IMG/VR virus record: IMGVR_UViG_3300042923_001106
Span: 32,001-96,000 of that record
Reading direction: 5' to 3' (one strand)
Origin: a virus
Length of the DNA: 64,000 bases
The position numbers and the translations under genes are program-made. Position 1 is the stretch's first letter. The number at the start of each line of letters is the position of its first letter. The notes beneath the pieces were generated by a model, which ran no database searches, was not told where the DNA came from, and saw only the letters and a list, made by a program, of their open reading frames with translations. This document shows positions 6,334 through 64,000 of the stretch, one piece after another.

Positions 6334-7074
6334 TTATCGATTTTTGCGTATGTGCATATCTGTGTCTATATTAATAAAATACTGAATATTGTTAACAGTT
6401 GGACAAATTGAATATTCCTCTAGATTTAATACCATCTCCTTAAGAGGGAAAATGTAATATTCTTTAAGTGAATAATCGTTATAAGGCAATTTGTTTTTAA
6501 TTACATCGCTACCAATAGCCACTCGACTCTTTCGCACATCAAGATAAACCTTAATGTACTTCTCAATGTTTTTAAATCTTGACGCATGATCTGCTGTGTA
6601 GGTATAAAATTCAATATTGTATTTGTCTTGTCCAAGAATCCAAATATCTTTTATATCGGCTAATCTGTATAGTTCGCGTCTATTTAAAAATTCTGTTGCT
6701 ATAGGAGTACATTGAAATTCAATTACAAACTTATTACCATCAAGTTCAAAATATATATCTGGTCTTTGCTTCGTCTCTGGAATCCATGCTTCAAGTTTGC
6801 AATTTTTAATGCCATCTAGTTCCCTAATCCATTCATACAATAATTGTTTTCCACACCTATGTTCTTCAGTTTCAGGTTCAGTATAATACCCTTCACATTC
6901 TTTAATTTTATGTCTAAAGTAAGGTGGTGAAATATCGCCATGACAGTATTCACAGCAATCTCCGCAAACAGGGCATTTTAAAGTGTTTTTATCAGACCAA
7001 TTTTTTAAAGTGTATTTATCATATCTACCGTCAAAGCAATTTATTAAGGTTTTTCCAACTCTACAAGTCAGCAA
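6334..7074 (-). CDS. CoiA-like PD-(D/E)xK nuclease with N-terminal Zn finger
   Basis: CPVC...YFRHK, ETEEHRCGK, QRPDI...VIEFQC...DIWILG. Confidence 0.75.
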   Translation of the reverse strand: MLTCRVGKTLINCFDGRYDKYTLKNWSDKNTLKCPVCGDCCEYCHGDISPPYFRHKIKECEGYYTEPETEEHRCGKQLLYEWIRELDGIKNCKLEAWIPETKQRPDIYFELDGNKFVIEFQCTPIATEFLNRRELYRLADIKDIWILGQDKYNIEFYTYTADHASRFKNIEKYIKVYLDVRKSRVAIGSDVIKNKLPYNDYSLKEYYIFPLKEMVLNLEEYSICPTVNNIQYFINIDTDMHIRKNR

Positions 7075-8173: not shown

Positions 8174-8337
8174 ATCGATCACCTCGTTTATTACATTCAA
8201 CAGAGGGGCTTGTCGAATCCTTTGTTGATGAATAAGAAGTTTTGACGAATCTAATAAATAAAATAATACAATACATTGACAATCATCATTTTTTACATAT
8301 AATTTGGATATACGCAATTAATGAGGAGGATTATGAA

Positions 8338-9378
8338 ATGAGTAAGTCATCAGTGATCAATGTTAGTAAGCTTAACCAACAGGAATCAGTATTTAAATAC
8401 ATTCAATCTTTTCTGAGAAATAAAGGAGTAAAATCACAAAACACTGAAAAGGCTTATGAGAATGATATACGCCAGTTTTTTCTGTACATGAGAAATAAAG
8501 AAATTGAAAGGCTGCTCGAAGTAGATATTCAGTTTAAAAATGCAGACATGATGGATTACCAGACATACCTTTACAGTGAGTTTGTTCAAACTAATGGTGA
8601 AAAATATTCGAATATTACAATAAACCGTAAAATGAATACAATAGTGGCACTCTATGCATCTCTAAAGCGAAATGGCTTTAGTGTTGACCCGGATATTATG
8701 AAGATTGAGGACTTACCCGATGATAGTAAACAGATTGGTTTTCTGACCGTCGATGAAATCGACCATATGCTGATAGTAACAAATGATTTGGAATTAAAAT
8801 ATTTCATCATGCTTGCATTGAGAACGAGTTTAAGAAAGGATGCTCTGCTCTCTCTAAGGTGGGATCAAATTCAACCATGTCATAATAATCCCGAATGTTA
8901 TATTATTACGACAATAGATAAAGGGAAGAGAGTGGAAAAGGAGATCCATAAGACAATGTATGAACTATTGTTAAAACTAAAAAAGGAAAACGATCCAAGT
9001 GTATTCCACACACCTATCAGGACACTTGATTATCGGTTTAAATCATTATGTAAAAAAATTGGCATAGATGAAAAAAGAAAGGTATCAATCCATTCTTTAA
9101 AAAAGGCTGGGGTTAGTTATGTAAAAGAATTAACAGGTGACATTCATGCAGCACAAATGCAAGCTGGACATAGTTCTCCAGTAACGACATCTAAATATTA
9201 TCTGGAGCGCAAAACAAACCTTGCGGGCATGATGTTGGACATTAAGGTAGAGGATAATATCTTTGAACAATTGACACATCAAGAATTGATAAACCTATTC
9301 CGAAGTTTTGGCAATGGAATTGGGCATCAACTTAAACTTAGAGCCAAGAAAATTATTGATGAGCGTTCGGATAAGTAA
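8338..9378 (+). CDS. Tyrosine recombinase/integrase
   Basis: SAM-like N domain; LRTSLRKDALLSL (Arg I), DKGK (Lys), HSLKK (HxxR with R to K), AGHSS, TTSKYY (Tyr); ATG 8338 after GAGGAGG. Confidence 0.9.
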   Translation: MSKSSVINVSKLNQQESVFKYIQSFLRNKGVKSQNTEKAYENDIRQFFLYMRNKEIERLLEVDIQFKNADMMDYQTYLYSEFVQTNGEKYSNITINRKMNTIVALYASLKRNGFSVDPDIMKIEDLPDDSKQIGFLTVDEIDHMLIVTNDLELKYFIMLALRTSLRKDALLSLRWDQIQPCHNNPECYIITTIDKGKRVEKEIHKTMYELLLKLKKENDPSVFHTPIRTLDYRFKSLCKKIGIDEKRKVSIHSLKKAGVSYVKELTGDIHAAQMQAGHSSPVTTSKYYLERKTNLAGMMLDIKVEDNIFEQLTHQELINLFRSFGNGIGHQLKLRAKKIIDERSDK

Positions 9379-32244: not shown

Positions 32245-32340
32245 TTGTTCCACCTCAACTTTTAAGTTATTGTTATCCAGTATATTCATTTATGTGAACT
32301 ATATTCATTGGGACAAAATGTAGTTGACAAAATTTAAAAT

Positions 32341-32354
32341 AGAACAAATGTTCT
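32341..32354. promoter_or_regulatory. LexA/DinR (SOS) box
   Basis: AGAAC-AAAT-GTTCT, matching the Firmicute GAAC-N4-GTTC consensus, just upstream of TATAAT at 32362. Confidence 0.7.
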
Positions 32355-32439
32355 ATTGTGTTATAATCATTTACACTATATAATAGGTACATGGATATAA
32401 ATAAATGATAATAATACTATTATACAAGGAGTCGATATT

Positions 32440-32853
32440 ATGGCGGTTGCAATGATGGAAAGAGCATCAATTAATATTCATCAAACTAACTTTACTGCAC
32501 CAAAAACAATCCATAGAGGCGATATCTATTTTGCGGATTTAGGCGATGGAAGAGGATCAATTCAAGGAGGAGTTCGGCCAGTACTTATTATTCAAAATGA
32601 TATTGGAAATCGATTCAGCCCTACCGTTATCATCGCGCCTATTACAGCTCAAATTCAAAAAGCGAAGCTGCCGACTCATGTAGTGCTATCGGCAATAAAG
32701 TATGGACTCGAAAGAGATTCTGTTGTACTGTTTGAGCAAATACAGACAATAAATAAGTCCGAACTTGGTGATAAGATTGCGCATATCAGTAGCCGAGACA
32801 TGAAGGAGATCATTCAAAGTGCAATGCAGATTAGTATTGGTTTGGTCCACTAA
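32440..32853 (+). CDS. mazF: MazF/NdoA-family endoribonuclease toxin
   Basis: RGDIYFADL...GSIQGGVRPVLIIQNDIGNRFSPTVIIAPIT...KLPTHV...DSVVLFEQIQTINKSEL. Confidence 0.9.
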   Translation: MAVAMMERASINIHQTNFTAPKTIHRGDIYFADLGDGRGSIQGGVRPVLIIQNDIGNRFSPTVIIAPITAQIQKAKLPTHVVLSAIKYGLERDSVVLFEQIQTINKSELGDKIAHISSRDMKEIIQSAMQISIGLVH

Positions 32854-59681: not shown

Positions 59682-60989
59682 ATGATTAGAGATCGTTCTG
59701 AACTTGAGCTACATCTGCAAGAGGCTATCGAACGAATAAAATATAAAAGAAAAAATGTCGAAGAAGTAAATAAATCTTTGTTAGAATATGACGTTCCACC
59801 GGGATTTTTCAATGAAGTTTGTAAGAAATACTCGATTCTGCAAGAAATCGATGCAGCATTGTTATGCTTAATAGCTAAAGCAGTATTTATGATTGATGGT
59901 AGTGATTCCATTAGAGTGGAAAATTACTTCACACAGGGCGAAATTGAGAGTGCTTCAAAATATAAACTAGAAAGAGATCAAGATATAAAACTGCCCATTA
60001 TCCTTAATGAAGTTATTAAAATAGACAATGACCGGTACTTTACAAAGATCAAGATGACGGATTTAGTACAATGGTATCACTCAAAGTTAATTGTATATGA
60101 CGCAGAAACACAGAGAGGTTTAAAATTTATTCGCTCCAGAGATGGGGTTGTGCCGGTTCCAATTGTCAATAAAGATAGCGTTGACAATATTGCAAATCAT
60201 ATGGAAGACGAGACATTCTTCACAGACACTATCCGATTAAATGTATACTCTGAGGAGTTTGAACCAGTTATATACAATCCTAAGACACGCATGTTAACGA
60301 TTAAAGAAGGAGTCACAATTTCTATTCTTGATGGTTTCCATCGGCTTCAAGGTGGTGTCAGAGCCGTCATGAAAAACCCCGAACTGCCACTTATAGAAGA
60401 ACTGTCTATTTGTATCTATGACACAGAAACAGCTAAGAAGTTTTTTGGACAAATTAACAAATACAACCCCATTGATCCTCAACGTCTTGAAGAATTAGAT
60501 GAGGAAAAAGTATCATTTGCAGCAGTTAAACAGTTAAAAATACACTCAGTCTTAAAAGGCAGAATTGCATCTGGATCTAAGATTAGTGGACTAGTCGGAC
60601 ATCTTACAACGGAAAGTATACTTGCAACGGCTATTGAGGAAGTTTTCGAACCCAGAAACACCCCACAAGCAAACTCTGTTGGAGTATATCTTGTAGAGTT
60701 TTTTAATTATTTATTTGAGACGTTTAAAGATCAAATTAACAACAAAGATTCGCTACTTGGACATCAGAGAATGTTTATTGGGTACATTGTGATAGCAAAA
60801 CAATTTAAAGATTATGACATTCCTTTAGAAGAGATCAAAGTGGTTGTTAATTATTTTAACTCTGATTATAATGAAGAATTGAGACAATTACTCACCAACA
60901 ATAGAGGAACACAAGCGAGATTACAGAAACTTGTTAAAGAATACTTTGAAAAGACAGATGTGAAATCAATTTTGAAATCAGGAGAGTAA
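59682..60989 (+). CDS. DndB/ParB-like DGxHR-domain protein (SPbeta YopQ-like)
   Basis: 435 aa; ILDGFHRLQG...FFGQINK; directly upstream of the MrpR-like gene. Confidence 0.7.
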   Translation: MIRDRSELELHLQEAIERIKYKRKNVEEVNKSLLEYDVPPGFFNEVCKKYSILQEIDAALLCLIAKAVFMIDGSDSIRVENYFTQGEIESASKYKLERDQDIKLPIILNEVIKIDNDRYFTKIKMTDLVQWYHSKLIVYDAETQRGLKFIRSRDGVVPVPIVNKDSVDNIANHMEDETFFTDTIRLNVYSEEFEPVIYNPKTRMLTIKEGVTISILDGFHRLQGGVRAVMKNPELPLIEELSICIYDTETAKKFFGQINKYNPIDPQRLEELDEEKVSFAAVKQLKIHSVLKGRIASGSKISGLVGHLTTESILATAIEEVFEPRNTPQANSVGVYLVEFFNYLFETFKDQINNKDSLLGHQRMFIGYIVIAKQFKDYDIPLEEIKVVVNYFNSDYNEELRQLLTNNRGTQARLQKLVKEYFEKTDVKSILKSGE

Positions 60990-60992
60990 AAC

Positions 60993-61991
60993 ATGTCCAA
61001 TAAGATTTATCAAGGTGGTTTTTATAACGAATATCAAAAATTTCGTTATCTAAAAACACTGCCTGAAAAATCGGTCGCACAAGCATCCCGAATTTTGAGT
61101 CGAGCAAGGCCAATAGAAGAACAATATGACATTGATTTATACAATTTCAGTCTACATCAAGTTGAAAACCTATTTAATTATCTCGAGCCTTCAACTTTAA
61201 ATGCGAGTCGTTCAAATTTCTATATTGTGCAAAACTATATCAGGTGGGGCATTGAGCAAAACTTAAGAGATGACAACCTCAATCCTATTGAATTGTTTTC
61301 AGATGTTGCATACTTCAACAGATTCATCGATCAATCAAAAAAGGCACTTTACACAAAAGATGAGATTGATGACATTGTTGATACATGTAAGAATGCTCAA
61401 GATTCGTTAGTGATCCAATTGATTTTTGAAGGCATATTTGGAGTATCTGGCTATACAGAACTTCTAAATTTAACAACAAATGATGTACTGGAAAACAACA
61501 CATTGCGGCTCAAAGATGGAGATAGCGAAAGACTTATTCGAGTGTCTGATAAATGTATCAGATTAATTGAAAAAGCCATTAATGAAGAAGTTTATTATAA
61601 AAAGAATGGTAATGCCAGTGTAAACCTCAAATCAGCAGATCATGCCGAGTTAGTTAAAAATAATTATGTTTTAAGAAATGTTAACACGAGAAGTAAAGAT
61701 GACGGGATCGCAGACGCTCACCTTGTATTAAGAAGAATTAAAGCTATAAAAGAATATGCTGAATTAAAAGTTTTAACTCCTTATATTGTAAGGAATTCAG
61801 GAATGTTGTACTTAGCGAAAAAGATATACGAAGAAGAAAACAAATTAGAAAAAGATCAAATAATATCAGTGTGTAGACAGTTCGGTATTCGAAAGATAAA
61901 TAACAATGGTTATGAAGTTTATAATACTCATAGATACACTGAAGACTTTTTAAATGTTAGGACTATCGATGAGGTATATGCAGACAGTTAA
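60993..61991 (+). CDS. MrpR/YopR-like lytic-cycle repressor (degenerate tyrosine-recombinase fold)
   Basis: 332 aa; LIFEGIFG...ELLNL lacks Arg I and YIVRNSGM replaces HxxR; follows the YopQ-like gene. Confidence 0.75.
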   Translation: MSNKIYQGGFYNEYQKFRYLKTLPEKSVAQASRILSRARPIEEQYDIDLYNFSLHQVENLFNYLEPSTLNASRSNFYIVQNYIRWGIEQNLRDDNLNPIELFSDVAYFNRFIDQSKKALYTKDEIDDIVDTCKNAQDSLVIQLIFEGIFGVSGYTELLNLTTNDVLENNTLRLKDGDSERLIRVSDKCIRLIEKAINEEVYYKKNGNASVNLKSADHAELVKNNYVLRNVNTRSKDDGIADAHLVLRRIKAIKEYAELKVLTPYIVRNSGMLYLAKKIYEEENKLEKDQIISVCRQFGIRKINNNGYEVYNTHRYTEDFLNVRTIDEVYADS

Positions 61992-62010
61992 CTCTCTGTC
62001 TGCATTTTTT
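61979..62010 (+). terminator. Intrinsic terminator
   Basis: TGCAGACAG-TTAACTCT-CTGTCTGCA-TTTTTT. Confidence 0.8.
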
Positions 62011-62059
62011 GTTGTTTTCTGACTGTGAAATTACTTTAAACATTTATTTATAAAATGTG

Positions 62060-62089
62060 TTGACGGACTTAGGAAGAATGTGGTACATT
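62060..62089 (+). promoter_or_regulatory. SigA-type promoter of the agr-like cassette
   Basis: TTGACG-18-TACATT with TG extension. Confidence 0.6.
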
Positions 62090-62161
62090 TATATCAAGAA
62101 AACAAACAGTAGATGTTTTAAAGATTTATGTTATAAAACATAATGGGGAAGAGTGATATCG

Positions 62162-62803
62162 ATGGATGCAGTTAGATTTTTCATGTTATCTATCTTAGAA
62201 GTTTCAACTTTGTTTGTTCTCATGTTCTCGATATTTAGATTCAAAGTTAGGTTCTATATAAAAGAAATAATTTTTATAAGCGTGTTGATTTCGTTGGCAT
62301 CTTATTATCTTAGATTTTTTGAGAATCTATATAGTTTAGTTCCGATAATACTCCTTGTTCTTATAATAATAAATTTATGGATTGTGTTTAAAATATCACC
62401 TTTCTACGCAGCTATTATGGGGATTGCTTCCTACGTCGGTTATAGTGTTGTACAGGCACTGATACTTTGGATCATGCAAGAGTCCAACTTTGTTACATTC
62501 AATCAGATAAAAGAAAACAATCTACAAACTGGTCAGTTACTTCAGATAATATCGGTTGCCATTACTCTACTGATATCTGTTGTTTTAGTAAGGTTTAGAC
62601 TATGGTTTACGTTTGTTCCTGTATCAAATTCTGTACTCATAAAGATCAACTCGAAGAATCTTATTACACTAATTGCAATTACAATATCTATCATCATAGT
62701 AGGATCGATTTTTAATATAAATAATATCGCTCTTATACTCATTGGATTAGTATTTGTCGCTGGATTTATTTATTACCTTCTGTATAAAAGGGAGACAACA
62801 TGA
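62162..62803 (+). CDS. Polytopic membrane protein (possible peptide sensor, no kinase domain)
   Basis: About 213 aa, almost entirely hydrophobic helices; overlaps the agrB start. Confidence 0.7.
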   Translation: MDAVRFFMLSILEVSTLFVLMFSIFRFKVRFYIKEIIFISVLISLASYYLRFFENLYSLVPIILLVLIIINLWIVFKISPFYAAIMGIASYVGYSVVQALILWIMQESNFVTFNQIKENNLQTGQLLQIISVAITLLISVVLVRFRLWFTFVPVSNSVLIKINSKNLITLIAITISIIIVGSIFNINNIALILIGLVFVAGFIYYLLYKRETT

Positions 62804-63327
62804 TTGATAAATTAACTCATACAATTGGTATGAAAATCAAAAAGAATTATCCAGAAGCAAACATTGAAATCCTTAAATACTCATTGAACGTAATAATAAA
62901 CCCACTAGCAACAATTATCCTTTCAATGGTAATATCACACTTTACTAATGATACTTATGATGTTGTAATCGCTATGGTATCGTTCGCTGTACTTAGGGCA
63001 TTCTCTGGCGGAATACATATTAAATCATCGGAGCTATGCATAATTATCTCAACGACATTATTTATTGGAATCTCTTTTTTGCACGATTACCTCGTCGACT
63101 ATACACTAATACTCACTATCATATCATCATTATTAGCCTTGACTTTTGCACCATCTAGAATTTATGGTCAAACAAGAATTCCGGAGCAGTTCTATCCGAT
63201 TCTAAAAGTTGTTTCATTGGGTATTATTTCAATTAATTATATATTTAACAGCAGTGTACTTGCTTTAACTTTTTTCATACAAAGTATGCTGCTGATTAAC
63301 ATCGGGAAAGGAGGTGAAAACAAATGA
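62800..63327 (+). CDS. agrB: AgrB-family peptide-processing membrane protease
   Basis: LKYSL...LRAFSGGIHIKSSELC (R, GGxH and C catalytic motif)...FAPS. Confidence 0.9.
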   Translation: MIDKLTHTIGMKIKKNYPEANIEILKYSLNVIINPLATIILSMVISHFTNDTYDVVIAMVSFAVLRAFSGGIHIKSSELCIIISTTLFIGISFLHDYLVDYTLILTIISSLLALTFAPSRIYGQTRIPEQFYPILKVVSLGIISINYIFNSSVLALTFFIQSMLLINIGKGGENK

Positions 63328-63449
63328 AAAAAATCATCGCAAAATATGCTACCTTGGCTTTGTCTGCAGTTGCTGTTGCTACCGTTAGTGGTACTGCAAG
63401 TTTGGTTTTCGTACACAATCCTAAAGTACCTCAAGATCTCTTGAAGTAA
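63324..63449 (+). CDS. agrD: AgrD-like cyclic lactone autoinducer precursor (41 aa)
   Basis: AAAGGAGGTG RBS; MKKIIAKYATLALSAVAVATVSGTASLVFVHNPKVPQDLLK. Missed by the ORF track. Confidence 0.85.
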   Translation: MKKIIAKYATLALSAVAVATVSGTASLVFVHNPKVPQDLLK

Positions 63450-63539
63450 TTTTAGGTTGAAATTGTTGGACTCGGAGAGTGATCGCTGTACTTTCCAGTC
63501 CAACAATTATAGTTTCTAGAATTGGAGGATATCTTTGCT

Positions 63540-63923
63540 ATGGAGTTTTTCGCAAAAAAGAAAGATGGGAAGAATATTTCAGAAAAAGTTGAAAAAATTC
63601 ATAGCAAGGATATCTGCTATGTAACCACCGAAGGAAGAAAAGCTCATACAATTGCAAAAATGAAAGATGGCTCTGTATATTATATTTCTATGCCAATATC
63701 AGAAATTGTTCAAGGATTGGAGGAATATGAAAACTTCAAAACAACGGATCGCAGTGTAACAGTCAATATGGATAACGTTACATATTACGAAACGCTGTAC
63801 GATAGGTTATTTTTTGAACATAACAATGAAATGAGGGAGTTTACGTTTATTACTGTAGCTAGATCATATGCTAAGGAAATCAAAGTCCTAATGAGGGAAT
63901 TACGTGTAGAATTTAGGGAATAA
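63540..63923 (+). CDS. Stand-alone LytTR DNA-binding domain protein
   Basis: KDICYVTTEGRK...FKTTDRSVTVNMDNV...ITVARSY; no receiver domain. Confidence 0.8.
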   Translation: MEFFAKKKDGKNISEKVEKIHSKDICYVTTEGRKAHTIAKMKDGSVYYISMPISEIVQGLEEYENFKTTDRSVTVNMDNVTYYETLYDRLFFEHNNEMREFTFITVARSYAKEIKVLMRELRVEFRE

Positions 63924-64000
63924 GGTTTTTCAAATATAAAGTAAAACAATAAAATACATTAAATAATTTTATGTGACATATTGCGACAAAATTTTCAATA

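Follow-up and report, generated by a model that had tools for sequence, protein, structure and literature searches.

The window analysed here is a stretch of 64,000 nucleotides, bases 32001-96000 of the IMG/VR virus record IMGVR_UViG_3300042923_001106, a 183,208-bp virus genome rated complete by CheckV. Close to its end, at 62060-63923 (positions are those of the window unless another locus is named), lies a four-gene cassette that an earlier note, made from the DNA letters, had described as a membrane protein with transmembrane (TM) segments only, an AgrB, an AgrD and a stand-alone LytTR protein. All four open reading frames (ORFs) are present and belong to the families then named (Pfam, TIGR04223 and AlphaFold2):

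62162..62803, plus strand: membrane protein with seven TM segments (7-TM; 213-216 aa), an AgrC-type sensor domain without DHp and ATPase modules; the ORF opens with GTG at 62153
62800..63327, plus strand: AgrB peptidase/cyclase (PF04647, 66.4 bits against a cut-off of 23)
63324..63449, plus strand: AgrD precursor of 41 aa (TIGR04223, 21.8 bits against a cut-off of 19), with predicted ring SLVFV and tail HNPKVPQDLLK
63540..63923, plus strand, from an ATG: stand-alone LytTR DNA-binding protein of 127 aa, an AgrA-type output domain without a receiver (PF04397, 29.4 bits against a cut-off of 22.6)

The seven TM segments and the lack of a kinase agree with the first description of the membrane protein; what that description missed is its identity as an AgrC-type sensor domain. 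ATG 62162 is more likely the start than GTG 62153, as it suits the homologues and the ribosome-binding site. No Pfam family matched the protein at E up to 1. An AlphaFold2 model from a 44-sequence alignment is a seven-helix bundle (pLDDT 93.8, pTM 0.90), and fold searches with it returned helical-bundle noise only (best E 0.56 in Foldseek against PDB; best Z 8.2, over partial ranges only, in the wide VIA search). Exhaustive phmmer searching found 263 cluster representatives at E ≤1e-3, and among the matches listed all 150 relatives were 149-248 aa long and none was kinase-sized. The protein Atlas gave unnamed clusters only.

The family was placed by a survey of AgrB loci in 201 genomes of the same class. 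Many of these loci carry a protein of 438-469 aa immediately 5' of agrB-agrD on the same strand, and these proteins are histidine kinases by Pfam (SPOB_a DHp plus HATPase_c or HATPase_c_5). Over its positions 1-214, a hidden Markov model (HMM) of the ~215-aa family aligns to the first 190-225 residues of the kinases (E down to 5e-9), and hhalign of the family against the N-termini of the agrB-linked kinases gave 98.1% with E 9e-14 over 150 columns, a near-invariant Glu of TM1 lining up in this profile-profile comparison. Judged by these profiles, the membrane protein and the sensor domain of AgrC-like kinases in other Bacilli are homologous. At locus L082 (the prefix L marks loci and contigs compared in this work) the gene order is histidine kinase-AgrB-AgrD-(receiver+LytTR), colinear with the phage cassette. 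Sensor homology and colinearity together indicate that the cassette is an agrC-B-D-A operon minus the kinase half and the receiver half, that is, a phosphorelay-free descendant of an agrC-agrB-agrD-agrA operon.

What remains of the two signalling proteins can be stated precisely. AgrC of the agr type is a sensor fused to DHp and HATPase_c, and here there is a sensor only, of 213 aa and ending past TM7; AgrA is a receiver plus LytTR, and here the LytTR domain stands alone in 127 aa, the same length as in the homologues P0001 and P0002 as called. When 29 LytTR proteins of such cassettes are combined into a profile, it matches the LytTR domains of ComE and AgrA in PDB (E 5e-8 to 1e-6). Because the sensor has no DHp or ATPase and the regulator no receiver, phosphotransfer between them is impossible. 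The absence of a histidine kinase and a receiver, first noticed for the window, holds in local profile searches for the whole 183-kb genome: an AgrC-type DHp+ATPase profile made from 15 agrB-linked kinases, which recovered 28 matches in a control, reached a best E of 0.36 against all ORFs of at least 80 aa, and the best hit of a receiver-domain profile (E 0.017, 9.6 bits) was no convincing receiver. Genome searches with the Pfam models HATPase_c, HATPase_c_5 and Response_reg were empty; the same method also missed the LytTR gene, which is real, and for this reason the local profile searches were relied on instead. The membrane protein and AgrB are the only ORFs of the genome with at least five predicted TM segments.

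The earlier note had set in advance that a kinase, a regulator or an arbitrium locus beyond 64 kb would speak against it. None was found in the next 14 kb, which encode AAA_24, 3D-domain, thymidylate kinase, DUF7275 and C5-methylase proteins, or in the whole genome. For arbitrium in particular, AimR of phage Goe14 reached a best E of 0.15 against all phage ORFs (phmmer --max), and a separate genome search for AimR was also empty. An ORF of AimR-like length (378 aa, 8242-9378) was rejected, being a tyrosine integrase (phrog_1, E 3e-31).

AgrB found no relative when used as a single query against the genome contigs. Across 16 homologues R66, G70, G71, H73 and C80 are invariant, in line with the intact R/GGxH/C motif seen at first reading, and the catalytic His and Cys are intact. 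The 41-aa AgrD shows the predicted features of the agr type, namely an amphipathic leader, a Cys/Ser ring residue five positions from the cleavage site, and a charged tail. About 45 AgrDs, aligned by anchoring on the P-x-E-L tail, share the pattern T/S-A-[C/S]-x4-[H/N/G]-x-P-x-x-P-x-E-L, in which the ring-start column is occupied by Cys (TAC-WWFG|HRPEV), Ser (in the window, TAS-LVFV|HNPKV) or Lys (K-PLLH|SPEI). Ser stands at the ring start in all 13 IMG/VR copies and in the SPbeta-like contigs. The Cys-free core with Ser as ring former, predicted at the outset, is thus in keeping with the family alignment, and the putative product is the Ser lactone SLVFV.

The same predicted ring occurs in L046 (IMGVR_UViG_3300048928_000648, 6486-6647; VASLVFV|HNPEPPEELLK), an unrelated 50-kb viral contig with 43% GC (the GC content of the 183-kb phage genome is 35.8%), and cross-talk between different phages is conceivable. 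AgrDs with Lys in the ring column were found in L011 (7787-7906), L015, L018 and L039 and in two cultured phages, Brevibacillus phage Davies (gp47, L055 4525-4644) and Paenibacillus phage Harrison (gp40, L056 4513-4641); the ring and tail forms of this subgroup are K-PLLH|SPEI, K-FAFH|SPEA, K-VSIG|NPVA and K-VFLG|SQPL. Lys at the ring start would imply lactam rather than (thio)lactone autoinducers; no described example is known to us.

Two non-coding features fall within the cassette:

62060..62089, plus strand: predicted cassette promoter, TTGACG-N18-TACATT with a TG extended -10 (consensus match only)
63450..63521, plus strand: stable RNA hairpin between agrD and the LytTR gene, a candidate attenuator or transcript-end/stability element

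The membrane-protein gene is joined to agrB, and agrB to agrD, by ATGA overlaps, and the four genes are predicted to form one operon with a promoter of its own. The promoter stretch TGTGGTACATT is kept in L008 and L003, and L004 has TGTGGTA. The hairpin (dG -29.4 kcal/mol, z -5.4; 0/200 shuffles fold equally well) keeps its stem arms in L008 and L003, with a variable loop; L041 has a hairpin at the matching place that takes in the Shine-Dalgarno sequence of the LytTR gene. This layout bears on the proposal that the membrane protein is a helper in AgrD processing, export or self-protection, with LytTR an unregulated factor controlled through its expression. The translational coupling of the membrane gene to agrB would suit such a helper, and so strong a hairpin ahead of the LytTR gene could leave the membrane gene, agrB and agrD as an expression unit of their own. 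We nevertheless regard the proposal as very improbable, as the part of AgrC-type kinases to which the membrane protein is homologous is precisely the ligand-sensing domain, and the LytTR-only protein, which has no other input domain, is yet conserved with the other three genes.

Upstream of the cassette the following features were identified:

59682..60989, plus strand: YopQ-like gene of the DndB/DGQHR family (PF14072 DndB, 34.8 bits; TIGR03187 DGQHR), the first of the repressor pair
60993..61991, plus strand: mrpR/yopR-type master repressor gene, tyrosine-recombinase fold (PF22822, 78.8 bits; PF22823, 69.7 bits)
61978..62015, plus strand: intrinsic terminator 3' of mrpR (10-bp stem with 5 GC pairs, T-run)

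The cassette directly follows, as had been noticed, a YopQ-like and MrpR/YopR repressor pair of SPbeta type, and the Pfam matches (PF14072, PF22822, PF22823) confirm the presence of this pair. MrpR of the window is 29-35% identical to YopR of SPbeta-family phages (tblastn), and the phage is a large SPbeta-like one whose host is probably a member of the Paenibacillaceae. The terminator after mrpR sets the cassette apart from the repressor operon. Three more SPbeta-like contigs, L008, L041 and L004, show the same succession of mrpR, terminator and cassette, each with an equivalent terminator after mrpR; L008 and L041 also have a YopQ-like gene 5' of mrpR. The L008 membrane protein is 81% identical to that of the window, L004 contains a MrpR fragment with 48% identity, and in L041, a 174.5-kb IMG/VR phage, MrpR is 39% and the cassette proteins ~35% identical. 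In smaller prophages (L009, L044, L046, L047, L049, L050) the cassette is found a short way upstream of a cI-type HTH repressor gene on the opposite strand, after which come Bro-N or pRha early genes; the L049 repressor has a Peptidase_S24 domain as well. In L051-L053, Davies and Harrison it adjoins the integrase.

Three of these loci, on viral contigs (L051 3663-4541; L052 5366-6127; L053 3771-4547) and situated by a serine recombinase, encode a sensor-only protein, AgrB, AgrD and a full receiver+LytTR protein but no kinase. Their phospho-acceptor column (at low sequence identity) holds Glu (TEY) in L051 and L053 and Asp in L052, and they look like putative intermediates toward the receiver-less form.

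The placement beside lysogeny genes can also be explained by a lysogenic-conversion module, in which the cassette gives the host a private extra channel of agr type and LytTR regulates host genes (outputs might be, for example, sporulation, secondary metabolites or competition) rather than the phage switch, the cassette sitting where it does as this region is transcribed in lysogens. PHROGs lists the membrane protein (phrog_15604) under "moron, auxiliary metabolic gene and host takeover", the same operon is common on chromosomes with up to five copies per genome, the cassette has its own predicted promoter and a terminator between mrpR and itself, and no LytTR site was found in phage promoters, all of which favour this explanation. 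Set against it are the synteny from mrpR to the cassette, which is kept though the MrpR proteins are just 39-48% identical, and the recurrence of the cassette by repressors in unrelated prophages. Furthermore, the LytTR proteins of phage and bacterial cassettes are strongly diverged (14-27% identity), which is what recognition of different DNA sites, perhaps those of the phage, would lead one to expect. On balance we consider lysogenic conversion rather unlikely as the function of the cassette.

Outside phages the arrangement is widespread. In the family of a Paenibacillus pseudetheri genome, 98 of the 151 species genomes sampled contain a homologue of the membrane protein, some in as many as five copies, and at 26 fetched bacterial loci AgrB follows the TM gene without exception, AgrD is present in 25 and a LytTR-only gene in 24. 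The four-gene unit was found on thirteen IMG/VR contigs and in the two cultured phages (gp44/45-gp46-gp47-gp48 in Davies, gp38-41 in Harrison), where the membrane-protein HMM picks up Davies gp44 and gp45 and Harrison gp38. Word-indexed homologue searching is weak for the hydrophobic proteins of the cassette; neither blastn of the cassette against GenBank phages nor a tblastn search of phages with the membrane protein returned a match. Among Paenibacillaceae and the temperate phages of this family the kinase-less layout is common, and it is not phage-specific. The cassette is neither a phage invention nor a new object: it is a common chromosomal operon, it is present in Davies and Harrison, and the lack of a kinase in such membrane proteins had been remarked on, so that it was already partly known (Hargreaves et al. 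2014, PMC3901668). The part that we add, by comparison of profiles and gene order, is the tracing of the membrane protein to the sensor of an AgrC-like kinase and of the cassette to agrCBDA minus the phosphorelay. Among the papers searched we found none in which the four genes are regarded as one signalling unit or a mechanism is explained; in the P. larvae and Brevibacillus phage genome papers AgrB appears in tables only.

Several of these loci show further variation. Davies has two tandem sensor-only paralogues, gp44 and gp45. At the bacterial chromosomal locus L011 (8341-9191) the cassette is followed by one more sensor-only paralogue and a hydrophobic ORF of 41 aa, with no second AgrB. The GenBank "peptidase" genes Davies gp48 (L055 4654-5019) and Harrison gp41 (L056 4648-5004) encode LytTR-domain proteins: Harrison gp41 scores 29.1 bits against the Pfam cut-off of 22.6, and Davies gp48 16.9 bits, which is sub-threshold and accompanied by a local-profile match.

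The distribution is also relevant to the suggestion that the cassette interferes with host quorum sensing, the sensor acting as a peptide sink or a poison subunit for AgrC-like kinases of the host, LytTR as a dominant negative at AgrA-type host sites, and the phage peptide as a cross-inhibitor of host receptors. A sensor-only and a LytTR-only protein are exactly the parts able to compete with the full-length proteins of a host, in some genomes of this family (L066, L072) a canonical agrB-agrD is followed by long multi-TM ORFs, and another prophage (L046) has the same predicted ring SLVFV. However, the operon is kinase-less in the majority of cases and is found on chromosomes that offer it no linked full-length partner, and a pure decoy needs neither an AgrB and AgrD of its own nor the conservation of all four genes, which leaves interference improbable.

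To our knowledge agr, the textbook case of cyclic-peptide quorum sensing, has always been described as a two-component phosphorelay. That the four genes stay together without phosphorelay modules argues for a working, phosphorylation-free form of peptide signalling from sensor to DNA-binding protein. As we envisage it, AgrB would make and release a five-residue Ser-lactone peptide with the ring SLVFV, which the sensor-only protein would bind through its variable outer face; the signal would then cross without phosphorylation, the conserved cytoplasmic face of the sensor contacting the LytTR protein directly in a hold-and-release manner, as membrane inhibitors do in LytTR regulatory systems (LRS). 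The LytTR protein, freed or captured, would alter transcription from phage promoters, and lysogeny, induction or superinfection behaviour would thereby track the density of phage-carrying cells. Direct coupling is the most economical proposal because the 127-aa LytTR protein lacks an input module and just one other protein, an AgrC-type sensor, is left without an assigned part. The positive-inside rule places the N-terminus of the sensor outside and its C-terminus inside; the predicted cytoplasmic half is more conserved than the outer half (IC 1.99 vs 1.63, p 2e-4), with FRF in loop 1, GFTFVP in loop 5 and a C-terminal K-E as conserved features, a pattern expected of a variable ligand face and a constant output face, which lends the proposal weak support. 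A role in lysogeny control is suggested mainly by the recurrence of the cassette beside lysogeny genes.

Precedent for such a relay comes from LRS. In HdrRM and BrsRM of Streptococcus mutans a membrane protein keeps a receiver-less LytTR activator inactive (PMC6193735). As in these systems, the cassette combines a receiver-less LytTR regulator with a co-transcribed membrane protein and no kinase, which makes LRS a precedent for membrane sequestration. It differs from them in its reversed gene order with AgrB and AgrD in between, and in its membrane protein, a homologue of the AgrC sensor, whereas DUF3021 and DUF2154 typify the membrane proteins of LRS (the absence of Pfam hits of any kind excludes a match to either). 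It also encodes a dedicated peptide signal, and none is named in the LRS literature cited.

Autoinduction in agr and LRS has as its hallmark direct repeats of 9 bp, which lie upstream of the operon promoter at a spacing of about 21 bp. In LRS these repeats lie 4-11 bp upstream of the -35 box and give positive feedback (PMC6193735). Upstream of the -35 box of the cassette no LRS-type direct repeats were seen by eye or by scan, and the best pairs of 9-mer direct repeats (spacing 19-23 bp) upstream of 44 cassettes match those of shuffled controls; sites of some other form may be present. The proposed relay is weakened by these results and by several other points. Inspection and scanning for repeats found no LytTR site in phage promoters and pointed to no target, and the 7-TM fold can draw on no solved relative. 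We infer both the contact between sensor and LytTR protein, which by analogy is probable, and the role in lysis-lysogeny. Position does not prove a part in phage decisions, because lysogeny modules are the usual home of accessory genes expressed from prophages, and since most bacterial copies of the cassette are chromosomal, it may primarily serve a function that has nothing to do with phages. In view of all this, that the cassette is a self-contained unit of the lysogeny region, with a sensor-to-LytTR relay acting on phage behaviour, seems to us about evenly balanced between true and false. The narrower version, in which direct phosphorylation-free contact provides an arbitrium-like signal for lysogeny or induction in SPbeta-like phages of Paenibacillaceae, doing there what arbitrium does in Bacillus SPbeta phages and reporting the number of cells nearby that already harbour the phage, is put forward tentatively, as a possibility about which we have more doubt than belief.

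Compared with canonical agr, the cassette shares the catalytic His and Cys of AgrB, the five-residue ring position and charged P-x-E-L tail of AgrD and the LytTR output; with agr of Staphylococcus and the agrC-B-D-A loci of other Bacilli it shares a kinase-homologous sensor, and with the latter loci also the colinear C-B-D-A order. It departs from canonical agr in that the sensor has no DHp or ATPase and the regulator no receiver, Ser replaces Cys, and no AgrA-type repeats were found. Arbitrium relies on a linear, imported hexapeptide and the cytoplasmic TPR receptor AimR. Like arbitrium (AimR-AimP-AimX), the cassette would be a secreted peptide system encoded by phages of the same group next to yopM-R/mrpR genes, but the proteins are unrelated, the cassette lies downstream and not upstream of the repressor operon, and no AimR was found.

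Among phages, phiCDHM1 of Clostridioides difficile is similar in being temperate and having agrB, agrD and an AgrC homologue; its agr3 locus retains a complete kinase of 453 aa and lacks a regulator (PMC3901668), unlike the phage studied here, which lacks the kinase module and has a LytTR protein. Closest are the phages Davies, Emery, Abouo and Harrison, for which AgrC-like membrane proteins without an ATPase domain were reported (Hargreaves et al. 2014, PMC3901668). In Davies and Harrison one or more membrane proteins, AgrB, AgrD and a small LytTR protein likewise lie between the integrase and the repressors. The differences are that the Brevibacillus and Harrison phages measure 44-58 kb, have integrase/cI-type switches and (Davies and Harrison) Lys in the AgrD ring column, and that in Davies and Harrison the LytTR gene went unrecognised under its annotation as a peptidase, whereas the window cassette follows mrpR in a 183-kb SPbeta-like phage. 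As Davies and Harrison are cultured and their hosts can be grown, the idea is directly testable, and in such phage-host pairs both the signalling route, proposed by analogy, and the phage role, which is plausible, can be addressed. If it is true, LytTR regulatory systems gain a defined ligand, and a second, unrelated peptide communication system stands beside the phage lysogeny switch.

One further feature was recognised downstream of the LytTR gene:

63968..64000 and on to ~64040 past the window end, no strand assigned: conserved non-coding block 3' of the LytTR gene, containing TGTGACAT, GCGACAAAAT and TGTCAACTACATTTTGTC

The block is retained in L008 and L003 despite diverged flanks, and it contains the best promoter-like site of the region (TTGACA-17-TATATT, minus strand). 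We consider it the best candidate for a LytTR target, as far as the nucleotide sequence can suggest one. A recurrence scan of the flanking intergenic DNA for 13-mers gave mostly AT-rich noise, except for one exact 18-mer, GACAAAATGTAGTTGACA, at 32312-32329, whose sole other copy in the genome lies on the minus strand at 64020-64037, just past the LytTR gene. The copy at 32312-32329 is in a divergent promoter region, behind which stands a MazF/PemK-type toxin gene (32440-32853; PF02452, 104 bits); the same promoter region contains a LexA-type box, GAACAAATGTTC, at 32345-32356. The sequence 3' of the LytTR gene of the window has only a half-site of such a box, CGAACTGTAATTG. In L041 a TTGCAA-17-TATAAT promoter and a perfect LexA-type box, AGAACATTTGTTCC, lie directly 3' of the LytTR gene (9100-9170).

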